Sequence record: MN850584.1
Length of the DNA stretch: 64,000 nucleotides
Strand: one strand, 5' to 3'
Origin: Escherichia phage arall
Shown: positions 5,187 through 22,343 of the stretch, one piece after another
Position numbering within the stretch: position 1 is the stretch's first letter
Layout: each line of letters opens with the position of its first letter
Notes under the pieces: model-generated
Database searches by the model: none
What the model was told of the DNA's origin: nothing
The model's input: only the letters and a program-made list of their open reading frames with translations
Program-made: the position numbers and the translations under genes

Positions 5187-5822
5187 ATGGGAATACCATT
5201 TGATTTAAAACTTGATGGTTCTAATGATTTAGTGATGGTGGATGGTGATTTAACACTAACCACAACTAAAAGTGAAATTGCAGCACAGACGCTTGGAATA
5301 ACACTTAGAACTTTCCGTGGAGAATGGTTCCTCAATTCTAATTTTGGGGTTCCATATCTGCAAGAGATTATTGGTGTTGCCAAGAAGAAAGAGATTGTTG
5401 ATCGCATTTTCTTATCAACTATCGCAAGTAATGTTTATATAGATAATATTAATTCCTACACATCCTCTTATGATAGAGATGATAGGTATTACTCAATGAA
5501 CGTTACTGTTACAGTTGGTGAACAAGTTGTTAGTGCTCTATTCAGTACACAGCCGTCTGAAGAATATATCTATCCAGAAGCTGGTGACGATAATGCAGCA
5601 ATCACTTGTGAAGCATTTGAAATTGTTGAATCTGCAAATAGACTCTATCGCTTTATTAACATTGTTGGTCTTCCTAAAGATACTTATTCTACTTGGTGGA
5701 ATGAGTGGTCTAACGAGGCATTGATTGAAAAATACCTTGTTAACGAAGCCAATAAAGGTCTTGCAACCAATTACAACTATGCTATAACAGCAACAATGGG
5801 AGCTACAAATAATAATGGCTGA
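5187..5822 (+). CDS. baseplate wedge protein (XkdS/gp25/gpW-like)
   Basis: 211 aa; N-terminus DGDLTLTT…AAQTLGITLRTFRGEWFLNSNFGVPYLQEIIG matches the XkdS/DUF2634-type pattern as I recall it. Confidence 0.4.
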   Translation: MGIPFDLKLDGSNDLVMVDGDLTLTTTKSEIAAQTLGITLRTFRGEWFLNSNFGVPYLQEIIGVAKKKEIVDRIFLSTIASNVYIDNINSYTSSYDRDDRYYSMNVTVTVGEQVVSALFSTQPSEEYIYPEAGDDNAAITCEAFEIVESANRLYRFINIVGLPKDTYSTWWNEWSNEALIEKYLVNEANKGLATNYNYAITATMGATNNNG

Positions 5823-6288
5823 TTTAACTACAATCAAGGTGTCTGATCTACCTGTAACAACATCTGTTTCAGACACAGATTATTTTGTAACAGATCAATC
5901 AGGCATCACTAAGAAAACATCATTACGTGTTCTTCTTGCGGGTGCTGGTGTTACACGAAATCGTCTTTCTGCAAGGGGTACTGTCACAAATACCCTAGCT
6001 TTAGATATTAGCACGGCAGAGTATTTCTCTGCCACTTTATCTAGTCCAACTTGCAGTATTTCATTTAGTAATGTTCCAGTTACAACTAACATTGTTCAAA
6101 ACTTTACGCTATCCCTACGTCAAGGCAGTGGAGCAAATAAAGTAACGTGGCCTCAATCTGTTAAATGGAGTTTTGGTCGCGCTCCTGTTTTGAGTTATAA
6201 ACAGGGAGCTACAGATATTTTTGAATTTGTTAGTTATGATAATGGAGCTACCTGGATAGGTAGTTTAGTGATGGCAGGAGTGATTTAA
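5815..6288 (+). CDS. hypothetical structural protein
   Basis: 157 aa; start overlaps upstream stop; Thr/Ser-rich. Confidence 0.4.
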   Translation: MADLTTIKVSDLPVTTSVSDTDYFVTDQSGITKKTSLRVLLAGAGVTRNRLSARGTVTNTLALDISTAEYFSATLSSPTCSISFSNVPVTTNIVQNFTLSLRQGSGANKVTWPQSVKWSFGRAPVLSYKQGATDIFEFVSYDNGATWIGSLVMAGVI

Positions 6289-9164
6289 TGTCAAGAATTA
6301 AGCACAGAATTGACAATGTTTTTCAACTGATCGATGGACATATTCAGTTCTTAGATCGTAATACAGGTTTAACTGTAGATCCTACAGTGCAACACTATGT
6401 ATTAAACCCACAAAACGTTCTAGCTAATAACAGACACTTTATAAACTGGACTGCTCAAGAAGGGCAACCAAACGGGGATGCTACAACAGAAGGTCAATCC
6501 GTGCTTATTCTTGGTTGCGCTTATGCATACCTAGCTTCCGGCGATACAAAGTATTTAGACTCTGCTAAAAAATATTGGCAAGCCTATATAGATTACTTCT
6601 TTGGTGGTCAACCTATCCCAGATCCGCCAGCAAAGTATCGCCCTAACTGGATTATTAACGGTAAAGAACCACGTCTTGCACATTATCCTCTTACAGATGA
6701 TGGCTACCCTACACACGGAGGTTTTAAGGGTAGCTTAATGACGTGGACTAACGGTAGAACAGTTATTCCTCATGGTGCTCCACATTGGGGAGAATACCTT
6801 GACAAAGCATGGTTTGCTTTTAATGGTAATCTAGGATGGAACTCTGTAAACGCTACAGTATATGCTGTTAATGCAGATGGTACAACAGATTGGTCTAAGA
6901 AGGGAGATCAATGGGATGTTGATTGGATCATTGATCGTCTAGGACGTAAAGTTGATTGGGATGGAAATATCTTAGAAGAAGGTTTTCCAACATCTCAATA
7001 CGGAACAGTTCAACTAAAAAATACTTCTGTAAATGGTACATATAAATTTAACTACGCGACTTGTAACCCTGTTGAACACGGTGGTTATTTAATGGAGCGT
7101 AACACTATGTGGCATAACAGACCAGTTAACGTTCCGGTAGAAATGGGCTTTCAGGATAATGCGTCAGATGCCGAAACTTGGTGGTGTGATGCTAATTACC
7201 TGATGTACCAAATTACAGGGGAAAGAAAATATTGGCTATGCTGGCAGTCTTCACTGTTAGTGTGTCAAGATTATTCAAACATTGATATGTTTGATAAATT
7301 CTTCCGTAAGTCTACATATGCAACTATTCCGTTTACAGATGGCATCTCTTACGATTATTCGTATCCATCTACAGCAATACCTAAATATTCAAGAGATACT
7401 TTAGGTTATATTGTTATTAGACAAGATGTTGCTGCTCAAACAACATTAGAACAGCAATCCATTTGGTTTAAAGTTGATCAGAAATCTAAGTTACGAGTTC
7501 AGTTCCAAGGTGTAGATGATGCAGGACATGGTATTCTTTTCCGTCCAGAATTGGAGCTAAGTAAGACCAAAGATGAAAATAACACAGTAACTTACCGTTG
7601 TGGCTTACCATTAGGTACAGCTAATATGACAAGCATGGATATTCCATTATCCAGCTTTATGAGAAGTACCCCTCCAAATGGTGGAACATATATTATCGCA
7701 GATCCGCGAATTATTGTTGACTGGGGTGACAATACTGTGGTACAATTTAAGTATGTAACAGGTATTGCTGGAACTAATGATGACCAGATTGTTACTGCAT
7801 CAATGGATACGGATGGTGGTGTCACTGTTGGTTTTTGGTTAACTCCTACATCAAAAGCTAATGTTAAGTCTATTACATATAGAACATATGAGGATGACTT
7901 TAACATGACTATCACGGATGCTCAAGGTTGGAGATGGTGGGCTATGCTGACTAAAACGCAAGGAGCATGGAGTACGAAGACTTTATCAGCTTCTGATTTT
8001 CAGTTAAGTGCTTACCAGCCTAATCATCCAGATACAGATCCTAAACCTTCAGCAATAAATCTGACTGCGGTAGATCAGGTAAATTTAGTTCTGGATACGG
8101 CTCCTGTCAATGGTTTAACAGGAACAATAGATTTCTATTGTATTAACGATGTACCTGAAAGATATTCGTCATCTTCTGGTGATGATTATACAATGTACTT
8201 CCGTATTACTGTACAGGCTTCAAGTCCTCATACTGCTAAGTTAGGTGATTGTACTATTATTGACTATAAGTTAAATAGTCTTAATTACACACCAGGAATA
8301 ATTCCATTCTCTAATATCAGTGACCCAAACACTGCATTATACGATGGATGGCGTGGTATTCCATACCCAGGATACCAGTATCCTTCCTTATACTGTTTCG
8401 CAGGTAGGGATATTGATTGGACACGTTTAAACAACAGTATTGATTTCTTGTATGATGCTCAAATGTGGTTTTATAACACGTTTGATCCTGTGATGCCTGG
8501 GCCTATGGCACAAGCATATGTGTGGGATCGTTGGGATGCAAGAAAATACGGTGAACCTAATACGTTTACAATGAAACACTGGAATGAAAAAGCGTGGGAT
8601 GGTTATGAAGCTCGTGCATTCTACTGTGCTTGTCATGCTGTATACGAACTTGTACAAAGAGGAGAAACACCTCCTGAAAAACTAGTAACTGTTTGTAAAA
8701 ATTGGATCAACTACCTTAAATGGTTCCAAGACAATAATGATGGAAGAACACCAACTATCTTTAACCCAGATGGTACAGTTCTTGCGCCTATAGATGACTT
8801 TACTAGTCATATGTCTGCACTGTTTATGGCTGGTTGTTCAATCATGGGCTTGGCAGGTTATGATTCACAAATTCCAAACATTGGTATTGTAGCAGACAGA
8901 TGTTTTGATCTGATTCAGCAAAACTATATTGTGCTCTCCCCTAACCATCCAATGAATGGTTGCTGGAGTGTTGCACCGCGTCCAGATTCAGATAACGGAA
9001 TGTTCTTTGGTTTCCATGCTGGAGAACTATTACGTGGTTTTGGTTTATATGCTTTATATCGTAAACTAAATCCTCAAAACGCCTTACCAATTTTAGACAA
9101 TAGTAACATACCGACACTAACTGTTCTAACTATGAATGATATTAGTGTTGATGTAACCAAATAA
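6288..9164 (+). CDS. large baseplate-associated protein, possible glycosidase-like receptor-binding protein
   Basis: 958 aa; ATGA overlap with upstream gene; N-terminal region (ILGCAYAYLASGDTKYLDSAKKYWQAY) reminiscent of alpha/alpha-toroid glycosidases; Trp/Tyr-rich. Confidence 0.4.
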   Translation: MSRIKHRIDNVFQLIDGHIQFLDRNTGLTVDPTVQHYVLNPQNVLANNRHFINWTAQEGQPNGDATTEGQSVLILGCAYAYLASGDTKYLDSAKKYWQAYIDYFFGGQPIPDPPAKYRPNWIINGKEPRLAHYPLTDDGYPTHGGFKGSLMTWTNGRTVIPHGAPHWGEYLDKAWFAFNGNLGWNSVNATVYAVNADGTTDWSKKGDQWDVDWIIDRLGRKVDWDGNILEEGFPTSQYGTVQLKNTSVNGTYKFNYATCNPVEHGGYLMERNTMWHNRPVNVPVEMGFQDNASDAETWWCDANYLMYQITGERKYWLCWQSSLLVCQDYSNIDMFDKFFRKSTYATIPFTDGISYDYSYPSTAIPKYSRDTLGYIVIRQDVAAQTTLEQQSIWFKVDQKSKLRVQFQGVDDAGHGILFRPELELSKTKDENNTVTYRCGLPLGTANMTSMDIPLSSFMRSTPPNGGTYIIADPRIIVDWGDNTVVQFKYVTGIAGTNDDQIVTASMDTDGGVTVGFWLTPTSKANVKSITYRTYEDDFNMTITDAQGWRWWAMLTKTQGAWSTKTLSASDFQLSAYQPNHPDTDPKPSAINLTAVDQVNLVLDTAPVNGLTGTIDFYCINDVPERYSSSSGDDYTMYFRITVQASSPHTAKLGDCTIIDYKLNSLNYTPGIIPFSNISDPNTALYDGWRGIPYPGYQYPSLYCFAGRDIDWTRLNNSIDFLYDAQMWFYNTFDPVMPGPMAQAYVWDRWDARKYGEPNTFTMKHWNEKAWDGYEARAFYCACHAVYELVQRGETPPEKLVTVCKNWINYLKWFQDNNDGRTPTIFNPDGTVLAPIDDFTSHMSALFMAGCSIMGLAGYDSQIPNIGIVADRCFDLIQQNYIVLSPNHPMNGCWSVAPRPDSDNGMFFGFHAGELLRGFGLYALYRKLNPQNALPILDNSNIPTLTVLTMNDISVDVTK

Positions 9165-9172
9165 GGAAAATA

Positions 9173-11248
9173 ATGAAACAGGCTATTTTTACTGTAACTC
9201 GAAATACGAGAGTAAATGCCAGTTCATTCAGCTATAAGACCGTCGATGGAACGGCGGTCGCTGGTAGAGATTATGTAGCTAAACAGGGAACAGTAACGTT
9301 CCCTTCTGATGCAGATTCTGCTACTGTAGTGGTTGATGTATATGAACGTCCGGCAAACTCTTTAGATCTTTATTTTACTCTTGAGATTACTAGCATAAGT
9401 CAAAATAACATGATGATCAACGAAGAAATTCGTTGTGTTATTACGACTGATCAATCGAATACAACCCCGCTAACTTGGCCTGTTGTGAAGTCTAGAATGT
9501 TTGATCCTAAGTTTTGGACAATAGATTCTCAAGCAACAGAAAGTTGTTCTATTATCTCTAATGGTGATTCTTTCACAGCAAGAATGGTTAATAGGACAGT
9601 GGCTGGTCTTGCTGGGATTATTTGGTCAACTTACGATAAATATGATCACAAAGGATTAGGCTACCAAGAACATTCTGACTTAAGTAAAGAGAAACTTTGG
9701 TTTAAAATGGAACTTAGTCAAGGTGTTCCTGGATTAAAAGAAGAAAAATTAATACCATCCTTAACAGTGACACTGAAGGATGAAACAGTTCATTATGTAT
9801 CTCTAAACTTTTATGCAGAAGAAGTTTCAGAAGATGGTAAGACAGCAACAATCAAACTAGATTTCTCAAATTTAAAATCTGGGCCAGAAAATGATATTGT
9901 TGTTGACACTACACAGATAGATAATATGTTCTTCTCCTTGATCTCCACAAGGTATCAAGAAATTGAAGATATTATTCCTGTAGACAATGTGGATCTTTCC
10001 TTTAAGTTTACCATACTGGAGCCTGATACTGGTTACAGTATGATGAATATGGGTAATTTAAATGTTCCAGCACACACCATAAGAATGTGTACATCTTATG
10101 ATGATATGTATAACCTGACCCCAGAGCGAGTTATTTCTAACACCTACAGATTAGGTTATAGGGATATGATTAACCATTATAATGGTATGTCACACTATTA
10201 TCAGTTTAGTTGGGATGCTGGTTCTAATAAATGGGTTTTGAATAGAACAGAATATTTAAACCCAGCAACAGAAGCATGGTTTGATAATTTCCACGCTAAT
10301 GCAAAAGCTATGGGCTACACAGTAATGAACTCCTTAAGTTTTGAACTTATGAGTACAGTGTGTCCTGTAGAATGGGTTCAACATACTTGGAATGATGATC
10401 TGGCTGCTACAGGTTATGAGCCACCAAGTTATGTTTTATCTCCTTCAATTGATGAAGGGATGAATTATTTACAAGGTGTAATAAATAAGATAGCTTCTAT
10501 ATCCGCTGCCAATGATCTTCCTGTTATTATTCAGGTTGGTGAACCGTGGTGGTGGTATAACACAGCTACCAATCTACCGTGTATTTATGATTATACAACC
10601 AAAGTTGCATTTAATAATGAAACTGGATTATATGCACAAGATGTTGGTACAGTTAAGAATTATAAAACTGGTACACCATATGATGAATATTATGCATTCC
10701 TATCTAAAACATTAGGACTGCGTGTTGCTAAATTTGCAACAGATACTAGATTAGCATATCCTGGGGCTAAAGTTACATTATTACCATTTGTGCCATCCAT
10801 TTTAGGTAACGGTATGATGGAGTTTGTTAACTTCCCTAAAGATTATTATATCCCAGAAAACTTTGACTTTTATTGTTCAGAATGTTATGACTGGTTGTTG
10901 GAAGGTCAGATGGAAAGATCTTTCGACGCTATTAAAATACCTAATGAGCAACTAGGTTTTAGTTATGATAAGATACATTATCTTGCAGGGTTTGTTCCAG
11001 ATGCAACTCTAGCACCATTATATGGCTTTGATCCTGAATCAGACTACAGAACATATTTGTGGAAAATGATTATAGGTAATATTGTATTGAATGACCAGAA
11101 GTTTGTTGGTTTGTATCAATACATATGGGCTTATCCACAAATTATGGCAGATTCATTAACTGTTCTTAATTCAAAATCCCAAGTTTTTTATATGGGTAAC
11201 GTACCTCTGAATGTCTTTTTACAAGATACAGTATATGTTTCTTCTTAA
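9173..11248 (+). CDS. structural protein with N-terminal Calx-beta-like domain
   Basis: 691 aa; FSYKTVDGTAVAGRDYVAKQGTVTFPSDADSATVVVDV matches the Calx-beta signature (DGTA..G.DY … g.v.F). Confidence 0.45.
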   Translation: MKQAIFTVTRNTRVNASSFSYKTVDGTAVAGRDYVAKQGTVTFPSDADSATVVVDVYERPANSLDLYFTLEITSISQNNMMINEEIRCVITTDQSNTTPLTWPVVKSRMFDPKFWTIDSQATESCSIISNGDSFTARMVNRTVAGLAGIIWSTYDKYDHKGLGYQEHSDLSKEKLWFKMELSQGVPGLKEEKLIPSLTVTLKDETVHYVSLNFYAEEVSEDGKTATIKLDFSNLKSGPENDIVVDTTQIDNMFFSLISTRYQEIEDIIPVDNVDLSFKFTILEPDTGYSMMNMGNLNVPAHTIRMCTSYDDMYNLTPERVISNTYRLGYRDMINHYNGMSHYYQFSWDAGSNKWVLNRTEYLNPATEAWFDNFHANAKAMGYTVMNSLSFELMSTVCPVEWVQHTWNDDLAATGYEPPSYVLSPSIDEGMNYLQGVINKIASISAANDLPVIIQVGEPWWWYNTATNLPCIYDYTTKVAFNNETGLYAQDVGTVKNYKTGTPYDEYYAFLSKTLGLRVAKFATDTRLAYPGAKVTLLPFVPSILGNGMMEFVNFPKDYYIPENFDFYCSECYDWLLEGQMERSFDAIKIPNEQLGFSYDKIHYLAGFVPDATLAPLYGFDPESDYRTYLWKMIIGNIVLNDQKFVGLYQYIWAYPQIMADSLTVLNSKSQVFYMGNVPLNVFLQDTVYVSS

Positions 11249-11259
11249 GGATCTCTAGT

Positions 11260-11505
11260 ATGAGAAAATTTTTAATAGGTATGTTTTGTACATATCCTGA
11301 TAATAAAGTCAGTTCTACTAAAGTTTGGAATGCTATTGGTATGATTGTTATGTCCAGTATGTTTATTTATTTGGGAATTGATAAAGAAATTCCTGAATGG
11401 ATGGGCTGGGCTTTTGTTTTTATGATCACACCATCCAGACTAATGAAGAATTTAATAGATTTACGTTGGGGCAGATCACCTGCCCCTGATAAGGAGGATA
11501 ACTAA
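11260..11505 (+). CDS. small membrane protein
   Basis: 81 aa; hydrophobic segment IGMIVMSSMFIYLGI, second WMGWAFVFMITP. Confidence 0.4.
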   Translation: MRKFLIGMFCTYPDNKVSSTKVWNAIGMIVMSSMFIYLGIDKEIPEWMGWAFVFMITPSRLMKNLIDLRWGRSPAPDKEDN

Positions 11506-12992
11506 TGGCAGATTATGGTTTAACAGATGCTGGTTTTGTCATTCCAACGTTTGATGATATTCTAAATAATTATATGACAGCATTGAAAAACACTTTCGGT
11601 GCAGATACAGCTACATCTGAAGATACTGTCTTTGGTCAACTGTTTCGTATTATTGCATATACAGATTACACCCTTTGGGAAGGTATGCAAGGTGTTTACA
11701 ATACCCAAACCTTAGATGGTGCAGAAGGTATTTACCTTGATGAAATTTTCTCTAAAAGGGGTTTTTATCGTAAAGCTGCTTCTGCTGGTAGTGGTTATGC
11801 TTATGTTAAATCTAACAATAAGGCAGCTTGGACTTATGAGCTAAGTACAGATGTTTATTTTAACGCCGATAACGATTTGACATATTATGTCAGTGCACCA
11901 ACAATGTTGAATGCTAAGATTGGAGCATATACCATTTCTAAAGCAAACGCAACAGCTTCTGGTGAAACTTCTATTACTTTCTACATTCAAAGTGCTATTG
12001 ATGGTGGTCTTAACAGTAAAACACTAAGTCCTAGCAATACAAACTTTATTTTAGATCTCACGAATTTCATTAAAGCTAACGTATCAACAACAGATCGTGC
12101 TTTAGTATGGAATGATGCTAGTAATGTTTACATGGGTTATAATCCAGAAGATAATGTTAACCCAATAGGTCTAGTAACACCAGTGAAATTTTATGCATCT
12201 ATTGCAATAGGTACAAAATGGAGTGAAATTCCAGTTACGTGTTCAGACGTTGGTTATAATCCAGTAGGTACAGAAAGTATCACAGGTATTTCTTCAACGT
12301 TTACAGGCTTTTTAGATACAGGTAACTTCTATCCATTCTCTCCAGGTACAGATGTTGAAACAGATGCAGAATTCCGTTCTCGTTTCAATGATAATATGGA
12401 TGAAGCTAATGCTGCTACTCGTGCTGCTATTGTTAAAGCTCTGCTACTGACAGATGGTGTGACAAAGGTTAAGATTTATGATAACCCTACATTACATGAT
12501 CAGGAACATGCTCCAGCTATGACATTCCAGACTATTGTGTATGGTGGTACAGCAGAAGAAGTTGCACAGGTTATTTATAATACTAAGCCTATTAACACCC
12601 TAACCTATGGTACAACAGCAATTACTATCGTAACAGAAGATGGTGGTCAAGAAGTAATTCGTTTTTCTCCTGGTGACAATGCTGAATATTCACTTAAACT
12701 AGTATATCAAACTGGCAATGGTAGTGTGTTAAGTACAACAGAAAGAGAAAATATTGTTTCTGCTCTTTCAAATCTACAGGCTTATTTTGAGTTAGGGTCA
12801 ACAGTAACTAACGATCAGATAAAAGGTGTAATTTATTCTGCACTTGCGTTCGGACGCTTGACTTCTCTCCGTGTTTATGTTAAACTTAATACTGAGGATG
12901 ACAGTAAATATAATGAGGGAGATATCACTCCAGCGTACAATGTTGTACCATCCTTTGACCTTGATAATATTTCCTACGAGTACGGAGTCTAA
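11505..12992 (+). CDS. baseplate J-like wedge protein (by position)
   Basis: 495 aa; ATGA overlap with upstream gene; precedes a gpI/XkdU-like gene and the tail fiber. Confidence 0.35.
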   Translation: MADYGLTDAGFVIPTFDDILNNYMTALKNTFGADTATSEDTVFGQLFRIIAYTDYTLWEGMQGVYNTQTLDGAEGIYLDEIFSKRGFYRKAASAGSGYAYVKSNNKAAWTYELSTDVYFNADNDLTYYVSAPTMLNAKIGAYTISKANATASGETSITFYIQSAIDGGLNSKTLSPSNTNFILDLTNFIKANVSTTDRALVWNDASNVYMGYNPEDNVNPIGLVTPVKFYASIAIGTKWSEIPVTCSDVGYNPVGTESITGISSTFTGFLDTGNFYPFSPGTDVETDAEFRSRFNDNMDEANAATRAAIVKALLLTDGVTKVKIYDNPTLHDQEHAPAMTFQTIVYGGTAEEVAQVIYNTKPINTLTYGTTAITIVTEDGGQEVIRFSPGDNAEYSLKLVYQTGNGSVLSTTERENIVSALSNLQAYFELGSTVTNDQIKGVIYSALAFGRLTSLRVYVKLNTEDDSKYNEGDITPAYNVVPSFDLDNISYEYGV

Positions 12993-12994
12993 AA

Positions 12995-13624
12995 ATGGCA
13001 GTGAGTGTTGACCATGTGACAACGTGGGATAGTATCAATGAAGATGTTAAAGACCTACTGATTGAAGATTTTAAATCTTCTCCGAACATTGTCAAACTAC
13101 TCTATATCATTTCTAGCGAAAAACAAAAGATAGATCAGGCAATGATCTATCTTGCCAAACACCGCTTAATCTCTACTGCGACTGGTAAGTATTTAGATCT
13201 TATTGGTGAAGAGATGGGGATGGAAAGAAATGGTGCTACAGATGAAGAGTATCGTACAATATTAAAAATCAGGGCTTATCGTGTTGCGTCTTCTGGTACG
13301 CGAGATGATATCATTGATATGTTCGCTCGTTTTACAGGAACAGAAAAAGAAACGATTAATACATACGTTGGACTAAATAAAACATTCGACGTATTCTTTT
13401 ATAATTTGTGTCTACAATCCGATCAGGCAGTAGCACAGTTACTTAACGTTTTCCCGATCCTAAGTAGTTATCGCTTAGGTGCGAAAGCGGGTGCAGCCTT
13501 TGGTTTCACTTCCTATTATGCCACAACTCCACCTCATGGTATAGGTGGTTTAGGTTCTCTTTACACAGAGGCTGAAGGAGATGATACAGGGCGAATGACT
13601 ATGCTGATAGCTCAAATAGAATAA
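12995..13624 (+). CDS. baseplate/tail protein (gpI/XkdU-like by position)
   Basis: 209 aa; between J-like gene and tail fiber gene. Confidence 0.35.
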   Translation: MAVSVDHVTTWDSINEDVKDLLIEDFKSSPNIVKLLYIISSEKQKIDQAMIYLAKHRLISTATGKYLDLIGEEMGMERNGATDEEYRTILKIRAYRVASSGTRDDIIDMFARFTGTEKETINTYVGLNKTFDVFFYNLCLQSDQAVAQLLNVFPILSSYRLGAKAGAAFGFTSYYATTPPHGIGGLGSLYTEAEGDDTGRMTMLIAQIE

Positions 13625-13637
13625 GGAGTTACTCTTA

Positions 13638-14618
13638 ATGGCAAAGCCACAATACTACCCTGACTGGGCGACACAAACAGTAACCCTCCCAGGAACGGGA
13701 AACACAAACAAGATTAGACCAAAAGAAACCATCCGTAATGTTGGTATGGACTTTGGTCAGATTATGACTTGTGAAGAAATGAACTGGATCTTAAACAATA
13801 TTGGGTCTTGGATTCGCTATATGCAAGATGAATTCTTCCCAACATTGCCTACTACATATCTTCCTATAGTCGGTACTAAAATTACAATGGCAGGTGATGC
13901 TACAGGTGAAGTTACATGGAATGGTAATGCTGCTGTAACATTATCTATTCAAGTAGTAGATAACAGTCATAATCACTTATCAGCTAACATTACAGACGCA
14001 ACATCGAACCAAGTTGTAGGAAATGTCCTTGTTAAGCGTGATAATGGTGGTGCTATCTATGCAGGTGATATTTACACTTGTGGTACAGGTGCTACAGATC
14101 CTGCAACATTATTTTTTAGAAACTATAATGGACAAACAGTAGGTAATATGTCCTCTGAACCAGGTGCAGGTGGTCAACTCTATATTTATAGAATGAACCC
14201 ATCAACTGGAGGAACATCTTGTGCAGTCCGTTTATATGATGCAGGTTATGTTTTAATAGACAATCCTCGTTCTAATTCTGGTCAAGATACTGGCAATGGT
14301 AATGCTCTTGTAAGATTAGATTATCTTAACTCAAGACTAAACTCATTGCAAAGTACACTGCAAAATAATATTAACAACGTTAATAGCAACTTGCAAGGCC
14401 AAATTAATAACATTAACAATAGAGTTTCTTCTGTTGTGTCTTCTATCCGTCTAGGTACACGTATTAAAGCTGGTGTATCTGAATCTCCTTTCTATGCTGG
14501 TCACGTGATCACAGGTTGGGGTTTTGGTGATAAGAAAGAACTTCGTGGTGCTTGGTATTGGTCAGCCCCGCTACAATATTATATTAATGGTAGCTGGATA
14601 ACAGTAACCAACGTTTAG
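13638..14618 (+). CDS. tail fiber protein
   Basis: 326 aa; AAGGAG RBS; Gly/Thr/Asn-rich; heptad coiled coil LVRLDYLNSRLNSLQSTLQNNINNVNSNLQGQINNINNRV. Confidence 0.5.
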   Translation: MAKPQYYPDWATQTVTLPGTGNTNKIRPKETIRNVGMDFGQIMTCEEMNWILNNIGSWIRYMQDEFFPTLPTTYLPIVGTKITMAGDATGEVTWNGNAAVTLSIQVVDNSHNHLSANITDATSNQVVGNVLVKRDNGGAIYAGDIYTCGTGATDPATLFFRNYNGQTVGNMSSEPGAGGQLYIYRMNPSTGGTSCAVRLYDAGYVLIDNPRSNSGQDTGNGNALVRLDYLNSRLNSLQSTLQNNINNVNSNLQGQINNINNRVSSVVSSIRLGTRIKAGVSESPFYAGHVITGWGFGDKKELRGAWYWSAPLQYYINGSWITVTNV

Positions 14619-14630
14619 TAAGGAGAACAC

Positions 14631-15182
14631 ATGAAAAAAGATGTTATTTACACTGGCTTTGAACTATATCAACCAGAATTGACAGAAGAAAATGTCATCT
14701 ATCTTTCAATAGGTGCTGGTTTTCTTAAAGATAAAGATGGTAATGATTGGTACGAAATTCAGAAATATTTATCCAAAAATTACCCTGATGCCTATTTCTT
14801 AACTCTAGATCACAACAATGTAGTTGTTGCAGCTACGAAAGATGTTTCTACATATTTTCCCGCTGGTCTTACTGTTCTTGTAACATACAATGTTCCAGAT
14901 AAAATAGAAGAAGAAAGCAATCTAGGATCGTGGAAATATGACAATGGTAAGTTTATTTCTCATAATGGGTTTGCAATAGAAGATGCCAACCTTAAAATGG
15001 AAAAAGAATTAACTTGGGCCACAAATCAAATATCTGCAATTCAAGATTTAGAGGAATTACAAGGTTTATCTGAAGAACAAAAAGATTGGTTAGGAAAAGT
15101 TAAACTCTATCGTGCAACATTAATTCAAATTAACGTTGAAGATGCACCTAATATAACTTGGCCTACAAGACCTAAGAAATAG
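14631..15182 (+). CDS. tail fiber assembly/chaperone protein (by position)
   Basis: 183 aa; AAGGAG RBS; directly downstream of fiber gene. Confidence 0.3.
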   Translation: MKKDVIYTGFELYQPELTEENVIYLSIGAGFLKDKDGNDWYEIQKYLSKNYPDAYFLTLDHNNVVVAATKDVSTYFPAGLTVLVTYNVPDKIEEESNLGSWKYDNGKFISHNGFAIEDANLKMEKELTWATNQISAIQDLEELQGLSEEQKDWLGKVKLYRATLIQINVEDAPNITWPTRPKK

Positions 15183-15191
15183 GGGCAATGT

Positions 15192-15533
15192 ATGGAGCTA
15201 ACAGAAGTATGGGATATCGCTAAAGAGGCGATTATCCCTCTTATTGGCGTAATCTGGGTGGTCTTCAAACAGAAGATAGATGATATGGCAAGTGATTTGG
15301 ATAAAATGGAAGACAAATACCGCGAACTAGAAAAGAAGTTGGTGTTTGTTGAATCCACTTATGCTACCAAAGCAGAACTTGCTCAAATGCTTAACCAGAT
15401 CAACTCTACATTAATGGCAAATAATACTGCCTTAGAACAGAAGATTGAAAAAATAATGGATTTAAAAAATGCTCCTGTTCAATTAATGTTAGAGGAGATT
15501 ACAAAGCGCACACAAAGTAAGGACAAAAATTAA
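15192..15533 (+). CDS. membrane-anchored coiled-coil protein (possible lysis-associated XhlA-like or fiber accessory)
   Basis: 113 aa; one TM segment (AIIPLIGVIWVVF) followed by coiled coil. Confidence 0.35.
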   Translation: MELTEVWDIAKEAIIPLIGVIWVVFKQKIDDMASDLDKMEDKYRELEKKLVFVESTYATKAELAQMLNQINSTLMANNTALEQKIEKIMDLKNAPVQLMLEEITKRTQSKDKN

Positions 15534-17947
15534 TGGCGAATTTTCCAACATATCCTGCTACGACACTAGAACAAGGTGTTGATCTGGTTATATTCTCGTC
15601 TAACCAGATGCATGATGTTATTAATGGGGATGCTACAGCAACTGTAGAAACCGAAACAGGTTTAATACCTACACTGCGTAAAGCACTTGTTGATAACTTC
15701 TTCTTTAAGAGTCCTGTTGCTTGGTCAGCAGGATCAACTGAAACTGTATTTAACCAGTTACGTTATTTTGAAAACGGTATCTTGAGTGGGTACTATTATG
15801 CCCCATCTGCCACTACTGCGAACCCTGTACCTATGCAGGGCACACCTGTAGGGGACAGTAACTGGACTCTGTACGCTCTTAAAACTGAACAGTTAGCTTC
15901 AGATGTATATCCTTGGTATTTTAAAGGTGCTACAGGATATGAAACAGAAATCAGTCCTCCTTATATCTTTGATAATGCTATTGTCACCATTAACGGTGTA
16001 ATTCAGATTCAAGGTGAAGCATTTACTATCAAAGATAGTAAAATTATTCTGGCAGAACCATTAGGTTTAGATCCGTCTACTGGTCTACCTAACAAATTGT
16101 TTGCTTTTATTGGTAAAACAACAGCCTCTACTTCTTACGTAGAGAAAAACCTTTTGTCATCTACCACTGGTGCAGCAATGGTTGGTCTTCCATCTGGAGG
16201 CAACCTGTTACAAGCTCAATACTTTGTAACGCCTGAGCAGTTTGGTGCAATTGGTGATGGAGTTACCGATGATACTCAAGCAATTTTAAAAACTATCACT
16301 TTCGCTAACACGAATAACATTCAAGTACGTGCGGATAAGAATTATAGATTCACAAGCTCAATTGCTATGTCTGGTATTCGTTGGTATGGTGGTACATTCA
16401 CTGGTAACGGTGGAACAATGATTTCTACTGTGTCCTGTTGGATGGAAAACGTTCGCTTTGAAAAATGTTATGTTAAGATGTTAGGTGGCGATTGCCGATT
16501 CTATCGTAATATCTTCTCCAACGCAACATCTACAGCAGCATTCTTAATGCAAACAATGACAAGTGAAGGTACGTTGGACTTCAGTTACAACGAAATGTAT
16601 GGTTGTAAATATGCGATCCTACAACAAGGTACTGGAGAAGTAATGACCTATGGGCGTTACTCTAACAACTATATTCACGATATCAAAGGTGATGCTATTG
16701 AACTTAACGTAGTTCAAAAACACTACACTGAAGGTTTGATTATCGAGAATAACCACATTGCTAACGTAGATGCTTCTGGACAAGGGGCAAACTGGGGTAT
16801 TGGTATTGGTGTAGCAGGTAGTGGCCCATATGGTGTTGATGTTCCTGATTCACAATATGTACGTAACTTCAGTATCGTTGGGAATAGGGTTTACAATTGC
16901 CGTCAATGTTTACACGTTGAAATGGGTAAAAACTTCACGATACGTGATAATGAAGTTTATCCTAACACAGCAGTTTCAACAGGTACAGGTTTAACTACTT
17001 GTGGTGTTGCATTATACGGATGCCAAGATTTTGAAGTTGATGGTTTAACTGGTTATCTGCTTAATGATCCGTCTGTTTCAACACGCATGGTCTTTATTGA
17101 TTGGGGTGTTAACAGTGGAAGATATGCGGGGCCACCAATTAACTTTACAATTAAGAATTTGGATATTCCAGAATCTTCAATTGAGATTGCAACATCTGGA
17201 TCAGATGCTTGGGAAAACTCTACAATTGTTAGTAACATCAATTGTAATGTTTTTAAATGGCGTGGGCTACCATCTAGCTCTACTTTTAATAATATTCGTT
17301 GCCGTAGTATTGACTTTATTGGTCAACACGGAAGCGGAGAAGGAAGTGGTGGCGGTTTCTATACTCGCAGCCAATTCACGTATATGAAGTGGGTAGGATG
17401 TACAGCACTTAGCGGAGATGAAACAACAGTTTCTTTTGCTAAAATCTACACTGATCGTTGCGATCAGGTTGGAAATAACTTTGGTGTTCCAACTGCTGTT
17501 GATGGTACAGGTCATCGTGGGCCAGTTTTAACTACTATTTCTGAACAATATTTTACAGCTTATGATGAATTCCCAGGTGGGCGTGAATTCCCTACTGGAA
17601 CAGTTATTCATTGTGCAAGCGGTAAAAAACATGTTGTTACAGTAGGTGGTGCTTTCTTCAGTGCCAACGAGAAAATAAAAGCAACTGTTACAGGTCAAAC
17701 CTATCTACAGTCTAATGCTTTAAACTGGGCTAGTAATGGCTACGCTAAAGCAGCAGGTACTAAGATTGTTATTCCAGGTGCAGGTGCAAATGGCGGCGAT
17801 CTTGTGACAACTATAGCACGTGCTACATACGTGACAAATAGTTTGTACACAATAGATATTGCAGATCCAATTGTAACACCTACAGCAGAGAATACACAAA
17901 TTAAAGCTCTGAATCCTGTTACTTTTGTTACTGTCAACAATGCTTAA
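15533..17947 (+). CDS. tailspike / depolymerase-like protein
   Basis: 804 aa; Gly/Asn-rich turn-rich stretches (NNHIANVDASGQGANWGIGIGVAGSG) suggest a beta-helix; followed by a terminator. Confidence 0.45.
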   Translation: MANFPTYPATTLEQGVDLVIFSSNQMHDVINGDATATVETETGLIPTLRKALVDNFFFKSPVAWSAGSTETVFNQLRYFENGILSGYYYAPSATTANPVPMQGTPVGDSNWTLYALKTEQLASDVYPWYFKGATGYETEISPPYIFDNAIVTINGVIQIQGEAFTIKDSKIILAEPLGLDPSTGLPNKLFAFIGKTTASTSYVEKNLLSSTTGAAMVGLPSGGNLLQAQYFVTPEQFGAIGDGVTDDTQAILKTITFANTNNIQVRADKNYRFTSSIAMSGIRWYGGTFTGNGGTMISTVSCWMENVRFEKCYVKMLGGDCRFYRNIFSNATSTAAFLMQTMTSEGTLDFSYNEMYGCKYAILQQGTGEVMTYGRYSNNYIHDIKGDAIELNVVQKHYTEGLIIENNHIANVDASGQGANWGIGIGVAGSGPYGVDVPDSQYVRNFSIVGNRVYNCRQCLHVEMGKNFTIRDNEVYPNTAVSTGTGLTTCGVALYGCQDFEVDGLTGYLLNDPSVSTRMVFIDWGVNSGRYAGPPINFTIKNLDIPESSIEIATSGSDAWENSTIVSNINCNVFKWRGLPSSSTFNNIRCRSIDFIGQHGSGEGSGGGFYTRSQFTYMKWVGCTALSGDETTVSFAKIYTDRCDQVGNNFGVPTAVDGTGHRGPVLTTISEQYFTAYDEFPGGREFPTGTVIHCASGKKHVVTVGGAFFSANEKIKATVTGQTYLQSNALNWASNGYAKAAGTKIVIPGAGANGGDLVTTIARATYVTNSLYTIDIADPIVTPTAENTQIKALNPVTFVTVNNA

Positions 17948-17951
17948 TTAA

Positions 17952-17975
17952 AAAGGGGCGAAAGCCCCTTTATAA
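17952..17975 (+). terminator. rho-independent terminator
   Basis: AAAGGGGC-GAAA-GCCCCTTT hairpin followed by A/T-rich tract. Confidence 0.6.
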
Positions 17976-17988
17976 AAGGAGTAGTAAA

Positions 17989-19950
17989 GTGATTTTAACA
18001 CGTCCAAATAGTGCCATTGCAGACATGGTAGAGTCTCGCTATAGAAAGCGTAGAAGTTTTGCAAGTGGTTTTACCTTAAGAGATGCTCGTGAAGCATTGC
18101 TCTTTGAAACTGACGGTAACTACTATCAGTGGAAAGGTTCTCTACCTAAAGTTGTACCTGCTAACTCTACTCCTACATCTACTGGAGGGATTTCAGATAC
18201 AGCTTGGAAAAATGTGGGTAATGCAGATGACATTGCTCAAATAGAATCAGAATTAGATGCTATTGAAGCTGAAATTGAAGATCTTAGAGAATCCATCCCA
18301 GAAGCTGGTAAATCAGCTTACCAAATTGCCGTAGACAATGGTTTCCAAGGTACTGAGACACAGTGGTTGGCTTCTTTAAAAGGTGATCCAGGTGCTCCAT
18401 TAAAGCTACTAGGGACGCTATCTAATACCAACCAATTACCTACAACTGGAAACAATGCAGGGGATGCATGGATTGTAGGCGAGAATATGTATGCTTGGGA
18501 TGGTACTGCTTGGAGAAAAGTAAACTCACAGGGGCCAGAAGGTAAATCTGCTTATGAAGTATGGCTTGCAGCAGGAAACGAAGGTACAGAACTAGATTAT
18601 CTTGCCGCAATTAAAGGTGATAAAGGGGAGCCTGGCTCAGAGGGGCCACAAGGTGTGCCAGGTAATAATGCTAATGGTTTTGATTACCAAGGCGCAGCTA
18701 ATTCCGTTTCAGATCTTCCTTCTGCATCTCCTGGAAACACATCTCAAGCATGGAGTATTGGTACATATCTATACGTGTCAAACGGTGTAGAATGGATCAA
18801 TATGGGCGCTATAGTGGGGCCAAAAGGAGATAAAGGCGACAAAGGAGATAAGGGTAACACTGGTGATTCAGCTTATCAAGTCTGGTTAAATGCTGGTAAC
18901 GTTGGTACTATTGACGAATATATTGCCTCTCTGAAAGGAGAAAAAGGTGATAAGGGAGACAAGGGTGATCAAGGTGCACAGGGTATACAAGGCTTGACGG
19001 GGCCAACTGGTGCAGGGTTGACCATTATTGATATTCTGACTAACACTTCTGAACTACCACAAACTGGAGAAGATGGTGATGGTTATCTAATCAATAATGA
19101 ACTTTGGGTCTGGTTGCAAGGAGCCACAGAGTGGACAAATGTTGGTCGTTTAGCTGGTACTCCAATCACTGCAAAAGGACACGTTGTGTCTGCAAGTGCG
19201 CTTCCTCCTACAGCCAATTACGGTGATGCTTATCTGACGGAAGATACAGGTCATCTTTACATTTACACCTATAATGAACTAACTCAAACTGCTGAATATG
19301 TAGATATGGGTAGTTTGAAAGGTGATAAGGGTGAAAAAGGTGACGCTGGTACTAACGGTACAGACGGTGCAACTTGGATTGTTAAAACAACAGATCCAAT
19401 CTCTAGTGATGGTAAACAAGGTGATTATGCCTTTAATATCTCCACTGGCGAGGTGTTCTTAAAAACATCTGCAACTATCTGGATTTCTCAAGGTACACTA
19501 CCTAGTATCACAGATGCACCTAGTGATGGTAAGACTTATGCTCGTAAAGATGGAGCATGGGAAGAACTCACTAATTCTGTAGATGGTCAAGATATAGTTC
19601 CAACAAAAGTAACAACTAATTTTATAGAGGTTACAGCATATACTAACAATTCTGTTACAGGGGACTGGACACCTCCAGGAACACATAACATGAATGTGTT
19701 GAATCTTACTGGTAACTCTACTATAAAAGCATGGCCTGGTGTCGAAGATAGCACAAAACCTAAACCATTCTCTGCAATAGTTTATCTTATCCAAGATGCC
19801 ACTGGAGGTCGTACTGTTACTTTAGATCCATCTTACAAAGTAATTGGTTCCAGTGATATTAATACAAATCCTAACGGAGTAACAATACTACAACTAACAT
19901 ATTGTGGTGTTGGCGATTACGTGGATGCTATTGTTGCTAAACGCACATAA
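17989..19950 (+). CDS. tail fiber protein with collagen-like repeats
   Basis: 653 aa; GTG start after AAGGAG; G-X-Y runs (GPKGDKGDKGDKGNTG, GEKGDKGDKGDQGAQGIQGLTGPTGAG, GDKGEKGDAGTNGTDG) interleaved with three copies of a ~30-aa SAYQ…LKG module. Confidence 0.55.
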   Translation: MILTRPNSAIADMVESRYRKRRSFASGFTLRDAREALLFETDGNYYQWKGSLPKVVPANSTPTSTGGISDTAWKNVGNADDIAQIESELDAIEAEIEDLRESIPEAGKSAYQIAVDNGFQGTETQWLASLKGDPGAPLKLLGTLSNTNQLPTTGNNAGDAWIVGENMYAWDGTAWRKVNSQGPEGKSAYEVWLAAGNEGTELDYLAAIKGDKGEPGSEGPQGVPGNNANGFDYQGAANSVSDLPSASPGNTSQAWSIGTYLYVSNGVEWINMGAIVGPKGDKGDKGDKGNTGDSAYQVWLNAGNVGTIDEYIASLKGEKGDKGDKGDQGAQGIQGLTGPTGAGLTIIDILTNTSELPQTGEDGDGYLINNELWVWLQGATEWTNVGRLAGTPITAKGHVVSASALPPTANYGDAYLTEDTGHLYIYTYNELTQTAEYVDMGSLKGDKGEKGDAGTNGTDGATWIVKTTDPISSDGKQGDYAFNISTGEVFLKTSATIWISQGTLPSITDAPSDGKTYARKDGAWEELTNSVDGQDIVPTKVTTNFIEVTAYTNNSVTGDWTPPGTHNMNVLNLTGNSTIKAWPGVEDSTKPKPFSAIVYLIQDATGGRTVTLDPSYKVIGSSDINTNPNGVTILQLTYCGVGDYVDAIVAKRT

Positions 19951-19952
19951 TC

Positions 19953-19978
19953 AAAGCCCCTTCGGGGGCTTATTATTT
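19953..19978 (+). terminator. rho-independent terminator
   Basis: AAAGCCCC-TTCG-GGGGCTT hairpin followed by ATTATTT. Confidence 0.6.
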
Positions 19979-19989
19979 AAGGAGATTAA

Positions 19990-21876
19990 ATGTATCCTAT
20001 TCCTTTATTTATGTCAACAACATCAGCTTCAGTAGTAACAGCTACATCTATAACTACTTCCTCTATTGGTATTGCAATAGTTGGTGGTAAAAAACAACTG
20101 ACATACACAGTTACACCGGAAGATGGTGCATTATTTGATATAGCTTTTTCATCTTCAGATAATACCAAAATGGTTATAGATAATAGTGGTATGATGGAGT
20201 TTGTTGCCGAAGGTAGTTTTGATGCAATAATGACAGCTAAAAATAATTTAGGTGCTGTCTTAACTGATCAATCTGGTGGTTATGCTTCAGAATTAAGTGT
20301 GTACACTGAAAGTCTATCGGCTATGGATGTAGGCACTACTCAACAGTTGGTTGCTACAATCAGTCCAGAAGGTGCTAAAGACCTTCCAGATATGGTAATT
20401 ACATACACCACAACAGATCCAGAAGTAGCTACTGTAAGCCCTACAGGGTTAATAACTGCTCTTAAAGATGGCGGTTGCCGTATAGGTTGTACTGCAACGT
20501 ATCAAGGAACAGTTGTGGCCTCTGATAGGTCTTATTTAGGTGTTAATGCTATTCCTGTTATTTCTAATGTAACAGCCGTGGCAAACAGTTATGGAGACGT
20601 TCGTGTTGCTTGGGATGTAACTGATTCGCTAGACGGTGATACTTATACTGTAGAAGTATTAGATTTAAGTAATAATAGTGTTCAGTGGACTACAACAACC
20701 ACGAATACTCATGCTTACTTTGATATCTCTGACTCTATTCCTCTTTATGGGTTTGCTCCAACATACCTTAAAATTAGCGTTAAGAGCACCAAAGCAGCAG
20801 CCGTTATCTTTAATAACTCAATAGCTACAGATGATTCGTTCATTAAAGAAGTTATTGTCTTTGCTGGACAAGATAACGTAAATGCACACTTTACAGAACT
20901 ATCTGGTGCAAATAAAGCAGCAATGAGTAGCACAACAGCCCGTAATGCATATGCTACGCAACGTGGTTTAGCAAATGCTGAAGTTCTTCCGTTAAATACA
21001 GCTTCTGGATCATCAGCAGCAGATAAATATGCTGACGATAAAGCTGGAACAGGTACACCAGACAACTACTGGTATGATCTGGATAACACAGCAGATGGGC
21101 CATGCTTAACTAATTTTATCACTAAAGTCACACCTTATGCAAGTAAGGTTAAAGCGATTATTTGGGGACAAGGTGAAAATGATGCTGTATCAGCATCTTC
21201 AACTGTTGCAGGTAGGTACAGTAACACTACACGTTACCATGATGCTACGATAGCCATCTTTGATAAGATGCGTACAATAGTTCCTGCTTCTCAAGCAAAA
21301 ATTGTTTGGCAGATCCTAGGACGTTCTTATTTATATGGTGTAGAAGTTAATGGTGTGGATTGGCAGAAGTACAGAAATGTACAAAGAACCATCTCTACAG
21401 CACGTGATGATGTTATCATTGGTTCTTGGGTAGATGGTGCTGAACGTTACAGTGGTTATGTTTATGAAGAAGGTATTGATGGTCGTATCCATTATATTTC
21501 TTCTGTATACCAAACAGCAGCTACAAAACTTGCTAAATCGGCAGCAGACGGTACAGACTTAACATCAGCGTCACCTGTTTGGGTTGATATGTCTGTTCCA
21601 ACAGGAGGAGCCGCTGTAAGACAAGCTAACCAAGATGCAATTATCTCTTGGGAACCAGCAGGATATACTAAACATTACTTCCGAAATGTAAACGTCCTCA
21701 CAGCAGCAACTCTTACAGAACAAACCCTGGATACTAACACTTACACATTTACTTATGCAGATCAGGTTGAACAATATGGATTTGCAGCAGGTACAACAGC
21801 GTTTGATGTTGCACACTATGATGCTGATAATGACGTGTTATCACCTCTTGTCAGATTTACAGTCAATGTTACATAA
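19990..21876 (+). CDS. receptor-binding/tail protein with putative carbohydrate-esterase (SASA/DUF303-like) domain
   Basis: 628 aa; AAGGAG RBS; N-terminal Thr/Ser-rich Ig-like region; VFAGQDNVNAHF and IIWGQGENDA resemble the GQSN / WxQGE blocks of sialate O-acetylesterase-like domains. Confidence 0.45.
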   Translation: MYPIPLFMSTTSASVVTATSITTSSIGIAIVGGKKQLTYTVTPEDGALFDIAFSSSDNTKMVIDNSGMMEFVAEGSFDAIMTAKNNLGAVLTDQSGGYASELSVYTESLSAMDVGTTQQLVATISPEGAKDLPDMVITYTTTDPEVATVSPTGLITALKDGGCRIGCTATYQGTVVASDRSYLGVNAIPVISNVTAVANSYGDVRVAWDVTDSLDGDTYTVEVLDLSNNSVQWTTTTTNTHAYFDISDSIPLYGFAPTYLKISVKSTKAAAVIFNNSIATDDSFIKEVIVFAGQDNVNAHFTELSGANKAAMSSTTARNAYATQRGLANAEVLPLNTASGSSAADKYADDKAGTGTPDNYWYDLDNTADGPCLTNFITKVTPYASKVKAIIWGQGENDAVSASSTVAGRYSNTTRYHDATIAIFDKMRTIVPASQAKIVWQILGRSYLYGVEVNGVDWQKYRNVQRTISTARDDVIIGSWVDGAERYSGYVYEEGIDGRIHYISSVYQTAATKLAKSAADGTDLTSASPVWVDMSVPTGGAAVRQANQDAIISWEPAGYTKHYFRNVNVLTAATLTEQTLDTNTYTFTYADQVEQYGFAAGTTAFDVAHYDADNDVLSPLVRFTVNVT

Positions 21877-21881
21877 ACAAA

Positions 21882-21909
21882 AAGGAGCCAATAGGCTCCT
21901 TTTCTTTTA
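21882..21909. terminator. bidirectional terminator at convergent gene junction
   Basis: AAAGGAGCC-AATA-GGCTCCTTT hairpin with T-tracts on both sides; + gene ends 21876, - gene ends 21912. Confidence 0.6.
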
Positions 21910-21911
21910 TC

Positions 21912-22343
21912 TTAATCAGTGAAAATTACGCTTACATCTTCTTTAGAGAAGAGTTTATGATCTTCACCTTTTGTCTCAAGAGTTTCATACAGGTTAAGAA
22001 GTTCTGAAACATCTTTCTCTACCAGTTTCTTCAATGTTGCAATTTTCTGTTTGCGACTCTTAATACGTTCAGCTACAACCTTACGCTGGTATCCGGCAGT
22101 ACGATAACCTGAGAAAGTTACACCAGTGAGACTTGCAGTTACAGGATCGTAGTGACGTTCAATCTGAAATTTATTAAAAGGTACAGCGTCATCACGAATA
22201 ATCTTACCGCCATTACTTACTTGACGAAGACCAGTAACTTGTTCCAGTCGTGCCATAGAAATCTTTGGAGACAGACCAGAGTCCAGGTTCATACCGTTGT
22301 TAATCAGTGCTTTCAGGGTGATTTTGCTGTTCAGTGTACTCAT
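21912..22343 (-). CDS. hypothetical protein
   Basis: 143 aa; GGAGG 9 nt upstream of ATG; start lies inside the 3' end of the methyltransferase gene (44-nt overlap). Confidence 0.45.
   Translation of the reverse strand: MSTLNSKITLKALINNGMNLDSGLSPKISMARLEQVTGLRQVSNGGKIIRDDAVPFNKFQIERHYDPVTASLTGVTFSGYRTAGYQRKVVAERIKSRKQKIATLKKLVEKDVSELLNLYETLETKGEDHKLFSKEDVSVIFTD

Follow-up and report, generated by a model that had tools for sequence, protein, structure and literature searches.

Phage phi92 is said, after work by Schwarzer and colleagues in 2012, to possess a branched adsorption apparatus that engages multiple receptors. The apparatus has been called a "nanosized Swiss army knife" (PMC8594841, PMC11984140), and its multivalence is also described elsewhere (PMC12210895). 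A cryo-EM study of phi92 published in 2026 distinguished three sets of fibers, with fiber III assigned to gp147 (PMC13450770). [quoted passage not shown] According to the work of Xu et al. (2025), as far as it is relayed in PMC13450770, colanic acid is hydrolyzed by phi92 gp150.

We analyzed a window of 64,000 nucleotides from Escherichia phage arall (MN850584.1), for which an earlier note had proposed multiple receptor-binding proteins in a branched adsorption apparatus. This proposal is borne out by the phi92-like identity of the locus and by the literature (PMC13450770). The ORF at 15533-17947 is almost certainly the colanidase tailspike gene of a phi92-like myophage (Justusliebigvirus). 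Indeed, gene 150 of phi92 and its relatives is 99.2-99.4% identical to this ORF at the nucleotide level over its full length. The 804-aa product, described previously as tailspike-like, is the orthologue of phi92 gp150 (YP_009012482), a colanidase tailspike. Both proteins have the same length and the same place between gp149 and gp151; they share 800/804 residues and differ only by I282V, T341A, S528N, and A711D. Residues 180-804 match the crystal structure of phi92 gp150 (PDB 6E0V/6E0W), and phrog_6117 ("colanic acid degradation") matches the protein with an E value of 1e-269. The orthology, domain layout, synteny, and genus-wide invariance of gp150 were all computed here (Table 1).

Table 1 Features of the receptor-binding cluster, with window coordinates
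Feature	Coordinates	Strand	Basis
gp139 sheath initiator, likely partner of the gp150 anchor	5187..5822	+	phi92 gp139 in PDB 21vq; phiTE sheath initiator
gp140 small fiber protein, 157 aa	5815..6288	+	phrog_9017 tail fiber, E 1e-69; phi92 annotation
gp141 orthologue, 958 aa, tail protein with predicted split (alpha/alpha)6 glycoside-hydrolase-like barrel	6288..9164	+	
gp142 orthologue, short 691-aa form, Calx-beta + N4-gp65-like N-domain + TIM barrel	9173..11248	+	PF03160, PF23844, PF23845
gp147 short tail fiber (phi92 fiber III; ORF 13638-14618, 326 aa) and gp148 Caudo_TAP chaperone	13638..15182	+	phi92 synteny
gp150 orthologue (colanic-acid-degrading/colanidase tailspike, 804 aa)	15533..17947	+	nucleotide identity, PDB, phrog matches
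gp150 residues 12-126, putative baseplate-attachment domain	15566..15910	+	phiTE long tail fiber homology
gp150 residues ~123-179, putative small fiber/adaptor-type domain between anchor and crystallized body	15899..16069	+	weak matches
gp150 residues 704-792, C-terminal tailspike Ig-like domain	17642..17908	+	PF20745
GNRA-loop hairpin after gp150	17952..17971	+	-14.5 kcal/mol, z -3.9
gp151 orthologue, fiber with Tail_spike_N N-terminal domain and short collagen-like runs, 653 aa	17989..19950	+	PF18668, PF01391
Terminator-like hairpin after gp151	19954..19971	+	consensus terminator match; -13.1 kcal/mol
628-aa protein (phi92 gp152 + gp153, unsplit)	19990..21876	+	Big_2; N4 gp65 homology; AlphaFold2 + Foldseek
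Predicted bidirectional terminator, convergent boundary with minus-strand genes	21880..21903	.	called on both strands; -16.3 kcal/mol, z -4.8

The order of the genes is identical to that of phi92 genes 140-153, and the order from gp139 to gp153 is shared with phi92 at 98-99% nucleotide identity (Schwarzer et al. 2012, J Virol 86:10384; cryo-EM, PMC13450770). The window thus shows the gp139-gp153 synteny and the high nucleotide identity that mark the Justusliebigvirus receptor-binding cluster. By BLAST, a 16.6-kb cluster is colinear with vB_EcoM_ZYD at 98.5% and with 50 others at 97-99%; for phages muut, outra, Eryne, and ESCO32, too, the alignment to the window is colinear and consists of a single BLAST piece. 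The layout of the window recurs in phage vB_EcoM_ZYD, the one twin in layout that was compared at the level of single genes. The six ORFs singled out earlier have the sizes claimed for them (958, 691, 326, 804, 653, and 628 aa), all lie on the + strand, and together span 15.6 kb. In phi92, a deletion of ~218 nt (window positions 20580-20797) splits the last gene into gp152 and gp153, whereas this gene is intact here. Phi92 also encodes the gp143 endosialidase, while the phage studied here has no gp143 and carries the short gp142. No gp143-type tailspike gene follows gp142 in the window, where the gp142 stop (11248) is directly followed by the gp144 start (11260), nor in ZYD or inny; this tailspike is variable within Justusliebigvirus rather than obligatory. 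The gp142 of the window also lacks a 33-aa C-terminal tail that is found in genomes with a gp143-type tailspike, the long-form tail and gp143 co-occurring in 10/10 genomes. The exchangeable gp143 tailspike may dock on this tail; gp143-type tailspikes have a conserved N-terminus of 45 aa.

The gp150 protein is composed of a putative N-terminal attachment domain (residues ~12-126), a small fiber-type domain (~123-179), and an enzymatic body, ~600 residues long, that terminates in an Ig-like domain. Residues 12-126 align with residues 15-130 of the long tail fiber of phage phiTE (PDB 9CUY chain g) with an E value of 1.7e-18, and this anchor domain is found alone on other fibers of Vequintavirus, Klebsiella, Vibrio, and Aeromonas phages. 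For residues ~123-179, the similarity to N-terminal regions of the tail-fiber, adaptor, and depolymerase kind (9k4a, 23sh, 8es4, 8vbx, 7y22) is weak, with E values from 7e-5 to 3e-3, and these residues are also matched by phrog_2710 and phrog_11393. The Ig-like domain is detected by PF20745 (TSP_Ig-like) with an E value of 2e-14 and 54.1 bits (cutoff 27.9). The Pfam pectate-lyase-like match is weak (E 0.05), and we infer the beta-helix fold from the ~99% identity to the solved structure. As for tailspikes in general, gp150 is presumably a trimer.

The phiTE system suggests how gp150 may be held on the virion. The phiTE sheath initiator is homologous to gp139 of the window (residues 22-174), and the contacts of the phiTE long-fiber anchor with the wedge and the sheath initiator are resolved in the structure. 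Because its N-terminus is homologous to that end of the phiTE long fiber, we infer that gp150 attaches to the wedge and to the sheath initiator in the same way; the remainder of the phiTE protein is an extended beta-helical fiber, whereas that of gp150 is the colanidase. By the same analogy, gp150 might form the trunk of the branched apparatus, seated directly in the wedge and in the sheath initiator's C-terminal arm, with its movement mechanically coupled to sheath triggering, a possibility that we advance only tentatively and regard as rather doubtful.

The other proteins of the cluster also largely agree with what had been proposed for them. The 958-aa gp141 orthologue matched no Pfam family, even at an E value of 10, so its fold had to be predicted; the predicted (alpha/alpha)6 barrel, with 7-12% sequence identity to its structural matches, fits the description "glycosidase-like". 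The Calx-beta assignment of gp142 is confirmed by PF03160 (38.7 bits, cutoff 27; residues 4-91), and matches to the Na/Ca exchanger CBD, N4 gp64, and N4 gp65 were detected as well. N4 gp65, a non-contractile sheath/receptor-binding protein (PDB 9LC0, 9YF4), shares its N-domain and TIM barrel with gp142, and its SGNH-like domain and C-terminal repeat domain with the 628-aa protein. In N4, however, a single chain of 1382 aa surrounding a podovirus tail contains all of these domains, whereas here they are divided between two myovirus baseplate proteins. The "classical fiber" of 326 aa is the short tail fiber gp147, whose N-terminus matches the phiTE short tail fiber, and PF02413 is found on gp148. 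The collagen-like nature of gp151 also stands (PF01391, 33.3 bits, cutoff 27.2), its four G-X-Y runs being short (6-9 triplets each; residues 210-227, 277-294, 317-343, and 445-462). A tandem-repeat scan of positions 5000-23000 returned a sole unit of 18 nt in 2.1 copies, inside the collagen-like region. The N-terminal domain of gp151 (PF18668, E 3e-21) matches CBA120 TSP1, TSP3, and TSP4 and G7C gp63.1, and the gene occurs, in colinear position, in the nine loci that we inspected.

For the 628-aa protein, the claim of an esterase domain held for the fold and failed for the active site. The AlphaFold2 model has an SGNH flavodoxin-like fold (pLDDT 95) that matches XAC1771, SIAE, CE2, and CE20 esterases in Foldseek (E 1e-9 to 1e-4), and a profile match to 2APJ was obtained (E 1e-4). 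The fold and the WxQGExD and H-Y motifs are common to SASA/CE6-type SGNH carbohydrate acetylesterases (PF03629; PDB 2APJ, 7KMM, 8F9P), but the serine of their GQSN motif is an aspartate here (GQDN). The nucleophile serine of the GQSN/GDS block is replaced by Asp295 in this protein, and 10/10 Justusliebigvirus loci have the aspartate; other conserved positions are kept, H501 among them. Homologues of the domain were collected by a full-library HMMER search, a word-indexed search having given only 2 fragments, and the serine is present in 40/53 homologous segments. An active esterase was rejected because the nucleophile is missing, and the Ser-to-Asp domain may have evolved from an esterase into a lectin.

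The missing nucleophile is one of two observations in favor of reading the 804-aa protein and its neighbors as purely structural baseplate parts with neither binding nor enzymatic domains. The other is the conservation of gp141, at 43-58% identity to sequences named from very different bacteria, a degree of conservation that suits a structural protein better than a host-specific receptor binder. We give this reading next to no credence: gp150 has 99% identity to a protein whose enzymatic activity has been published and whose crystal structure is available, and gp142 carries an N4 gp65-type TIM barrel tied to NGR-glycan dependence. It could also be argued that gp150 kept its fold and changed its substrate in this phage, given that the four substitutions fall in the enzymatic body. 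A change of specificity could result from them in principle, but it is highly improbable, as the substitutions are conservative and scattered, gp150 shows no insertion, deletion, or domain swap, and the Eryne protein is 99.9% identical to that of the window, with others at 99% or more.

The earlier note had further taken the last three genes for independently acquired modules, each followed by its own terminator, and they might then be recent cassettes transcribed as separate units. A hairpin does follow each gene, the gaps of 41 and 39 nt after gp150 and gp151 are the only intergenic gaps longer than 15 nt between 2276 and 21876, and the catalytic body and anchor of gp150 separate in other phage groups. 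Although all three hairpins are stable, that after gp150 (AAAGGGGC-GAAA-GCCCCUUU, then AUAAAAGG) has no U-tract and was not called in the terminator scan, the terminator consensus being matched only at 19954-19971 and 21880-21903. Moreover, the ATG of gp150 overlaps the gp149 stop (ATGA at 15533), and we claim no internal promoter because promoter-like sites, none of which stands out, are no more common than in shuffled sequence (73 versus 60 +/- 8 expected). A full-length gp150 at at least 95% identity was found in 55/55 related genomes, and the segments that vary among 10 genomes compared lie elsewhere, in the tailspike cassette after gp142 (absent here) and in the C-terminal 311 aa encoded by the last gene. 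Independent recent acquisition of the three genes is therefore unlikely, the module reading failing for gp150 and gp151, and a recent insertion of gp150 was rejected on its invariance and its overlap with gp149. On a deeper timescale, gp150 is modular, since other phage groups have the anchor (residues 10-114) and the catalytic body (residues ~182-802) apart from each other. No tRNA was found in a scan that covered the whole window.

With gp150 as a conserved colanidase tailspike, the enzymatic activity and the multi-fiber architecture being those reported in the literature, the cluster would work as follows. At the baseplate periphery, gp150 would sit beside gp141, gp142, gp147, gp151, and the Ig/SGNH-fold protein, and would bind and cleave the colanic-acid exopolysaccharide, the reported bond being beta-1,4 glucose-fucose. 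By this cleavage, the phage would bore its way through the slime layer and reach the outer membrane. The N4-gp65-like TIM barrel of gp142 would target the NGR glycan, and the short fiber gp147 would bind irreversibly to the LPS core.

The gp150 tailspike and the receptor-binding cluster are of the already known phi92 type, and the finding, correct but ordinary, rediscovers a textbook multivalent adsorption device and leaves existing knowledge unchanged. The side observations could guide structural work on fiber attachment in phi92 beyond the 2026 cryo-EM study. If gp150 were the trunk, the identity of the unassigned phi92 fiber density would be settled, and the "rip-cord" position would be held by an exopolysaccharide depolymerase and not by a classical fiber. 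For annotation, the value lies in placing this phage in the gp143-less subgroup of Justusliebigvirus; therefore, endosialidase activity on the K1/K92 capsule should be absent, while colanic-acid degradation and N4-type glycan targeting should remain.

The 804-codon open reading frame on the plus strand (exact limits 15533-17947) is an already known protein within an already known system. By Megablast, 55 records, all from phi92-like phages (Justusliebigvirus), contain the complete gene at 95-99.4% identity and annotate it as a colanidase tailspike or colanic-acid-degrading protein. Its product is the orthologue of phi92 gp150, from which it differs by four amino acids (I282V, T341A, S528N, and A711D). 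Residues 180-804 match the crystal structure of 'Bacteriophage Phi92 gp150' (PDB 6E0V/6E0W), residues 172-801 match phrog_6117, 'colanic acid degradation', in PHROGs (E 1e-269), and a C-terminal tailspike Ig-like domain was detected with Pfam, in agreement with the tailspike-like character proposed in an earlier note. As cited in the 2026 cryo-EM paper (PMC13450770), phi92 gp150 is reported to cleave the beta-1,4 glucose-fucose bond of colanic acid (Xu et al. 2025).

The six reading frames named in that note are all real, with the sizes given there, and together occupy 6288-21876 (about 15.6 kb), all on the plus strand. The cluster follows the order of phi92 genes 139-153 and belongs to a long plus-strand operon in which intergenic gaps are at most 15 nt from position 2276 on, except for 41 nt downstream of gp150 and 39 nt downstream of gp151. 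The stretch 5800-22400 aligns to vB_EcoM_ZYD (ZYD) as a single colinear piece at 98.5% identity and shares 97-99% identity with about 50 further genomes. Of note, the cluster is also 98% identical to several GenBank records named 'Campylobacter phage' (among them A150, C3, and A110a) and to one named 'Serratia phage', and ZYD is classified under Vequintavirus; such labels probably reflect mistakes in host or taxonomy.

Features of the tail gene cluster, named after their phi92 counterparts (window positions unless stated)
Feature	Position	Strand	Description
gp139	5187-5822	+	sheath initiator
gp140	5815-6288		small fiber protein
gp141	6288-9164	+	tail protein with glycoside-hydrolase-like barrel
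gp142	9173-11248	+	Calx-beta and N4-gp65-like domains
gp142 C-terminal variable region	11228-11260; phi92 locus (L001) 8790-8902		
gp144	11260-11505		small protein 3' of gp142
gp145, gp146	11505-13624		wedge proteins
gp147	13638-14618	+	short fiber
gp148	14631-15182		fiber chaperone
gp149	15192-15533		small protein
gp150	15533-17947	+	colanidase tailspike
gp151	17989-19950	+	collagen-like fiber
gp152 + gp153	19990-21876	+	Ig/SGNH-fold tail protein

The earlier observation was essentially right, and its main interpretation, a branched multi-receptor apparatus, agrees with published knowledge. The adsorption apparatus of phi92-like phages goes by the name 'nanosized Swiss army knife' and comprises three fiber sets that are expressed together (PMC8594841, PMC11984140, PMC12210895). 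It is branched in phi92, since the cryo-EM report places fiber II on the base of fiber I; gp147 is identified there as fiber III (PMC13450770). The classical fiber of the note is gp147, which forms a short-fiber/chaperone pair with gp148 (Caudo_TAP), and the collagen-like fiber is gp151, with a TSP1/Gp66-type N-terminal domain and four short G-X-Y runs. The Calx-beta domain was located at residues 4-91 of gp142, followed, according to Pfam and PDB matches, by two domains of the N4 'non-contractile tail sheath' protein gp65, its N-domain and its TIM barrel. These homologous 'glycan deacetylase tailspikes' have been connected in published work with a need for the NGR glycan in phage N4, the Vequintavirinae, and phi92-like phages (PMC8669472). 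No Pfam match was found for gp141, the 958-aa protein called glycosidase-like, and its AlphaFold2 model (50 homologues, pLDDT 87.5) predicts a split (alpha/alpha)6 barrel, consistent with that name. Its family shows 43-58% identity over ~940 aa among sequences named from Enterobacter, E. coli, Pseudomonas, a Stenotrophomonas phage, Gluconobacter, and marine bacteria. Such conservation across unrelated bacteria is unusually strong for a protein supposed to bind receptors in a host-specific way; in some relatives it is fused to an NCTSP TIM-barrel or to a different C-terminal domain. The N-terminus of gp140, MADLTTIKVSDLPVTTSVSDTDYFVTDQ, is similar to the conserved N-terminal anchor peptide of gp143-type tailspikes, and the two may share one kind of docking site.

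The last three genes had also been read as independently acquired modules, each with its own terminator. Stable hairpins do follow all three (-14.5, -13.1, and -16.3 kcal/mol after gp150, gp151, and the last gene), but only the second and third fit the consensus for terminators. The gp150 hairpin (17952-17971) has a GAAA loop followed by AUAAAAGG; the third is bidirectional and lies at the boundary with convergent minus-strand genes. When the window was compared with nine related loci (10 genomes), gp150 and gp151 were present and colinear in all nine, and two sites varied independently: site A, 3' of gp142, and site B, the last gene. Among these genomes, module swapping, for which the note had suggested a comparison of related phages, is seen at site A and in the C-terminus of the last gene. 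'Independently acquired' therefore fits segments other than those three genes, and the case built on terminators and acquisition is weak.

At site A, the window, ZYD, and inny encode a 691-aa gp142 with no tailspike after it. In the seven other genomes, gp142 is 719 aa long and ends in an additional 33-aa tail (ITLKQVN...QKFYI); after it comes either a tailspike (918, 857, 731, 668, or 624 aa) or remnants. These tailspikes have divergent bodies and a conserved N-terminus of ~45 aa (MSTTITNLPETSKVN.SDYLVLDQ...). The long form and a downstream occupant co-occur in 10/10 genomes, which suggests that the gp142 tail and the exchangeable tailspike N-terminus could be a docking pair. The PHB05 locus (L004) has two copies of the 5' part of gene 144 (8602-8794 and 9192 onward; window 11259-11451), one on either side of additional small ORFs that lie 3' of the tailspike cassette, an arrangement that resembles a scar left by recombination during cassette exchange.

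At site B, the product of the last gene is 628 aa long in five genomes (the window, ZYD, KKP_3264, AV123, and ESCO9); in inny, PHB05, PaulScherrer, and KMB37 it is 939 aa long, the additional 311 aa forming a C-terminal domain. The phi92 copy has lost ~218 nt by deletion (window 20580-20797; around 21041-21047 in L001), so that the products annotated there as gp152 (202 aa) and gp153 (295 aa, 'no RBS identified') are two pieces of one gene, intact (628 or 939 aa) in the nine other genomes (the window and eight relatives).

For the 628-aa product, the proposed esterase domain stands as a fold and is doubtful as an activity. Besides Big_2 Ig domains (Pfam), it contains a domain matching Pfam SASA weakly (E 0.012). 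A full-library HMMER search gave 78 relatives of this domain; 6/10 of those scanned reach the SASA gathering score, and a profile built from the relatives matches the CE6-type esterase 2APJ. The AlphaFold2 model (pLDDT 95) matches N4 gp65, then carbohydrate acetylesterases, so that the predicted SGNH/SASA fold holds. The family's GQSN serine, kept in 40/53 aligned segments, is replaced in 10/10 Justusliebigvirus loci (GQDN; Asp295, codon about 20872-20874), while every other conserved position is kept, including His501. Esterase activity is doubtful because this serine is the presumed nucleophile. The homologous SGNH-like domain copies of N4 gp65 likewise do not have GQSN; the domain may be an esterase-derived lectin, or another mechanism may be in use. 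A 49%-identical relative has GGDN at this position.

Over longer evolutionary times, gp150 itself is mosaic. Counterparts of its body (residues ~182-802) occur in jumbo phages (57% identity), in Phapecoctavirus (44%), and in the 'tailspike colanidases' of small podophages (about 30%), and its anchor (residues 10-114) is found alone on other fibers of Vequintavirus, Klebsiella, Vibrio, and Aeromonas phages. Residues 12-126 (window 15566-15910) are homologous to residues 15-130 of the phiTE long tail fiber (E 1.7e-18), and gp139 is conserved with its phiTE counterpart over residues 22-174. The long-fiber N-terminus and the sheath initiator are the partners of the phiTE 'rip-cord bundle', and from this homology gp150 would attach at the wedge and sheath initiator. 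The phi92 baseplate entry 21vq was not among the PDB matches to gp150, and the 2026 phi92 study did not succeed in matching gp150 to any fiber density (PMC13450770). The multi-receptor apparatus of such phages is already well described; the homology of the gp150 anchor is a lead beyond the published literature.
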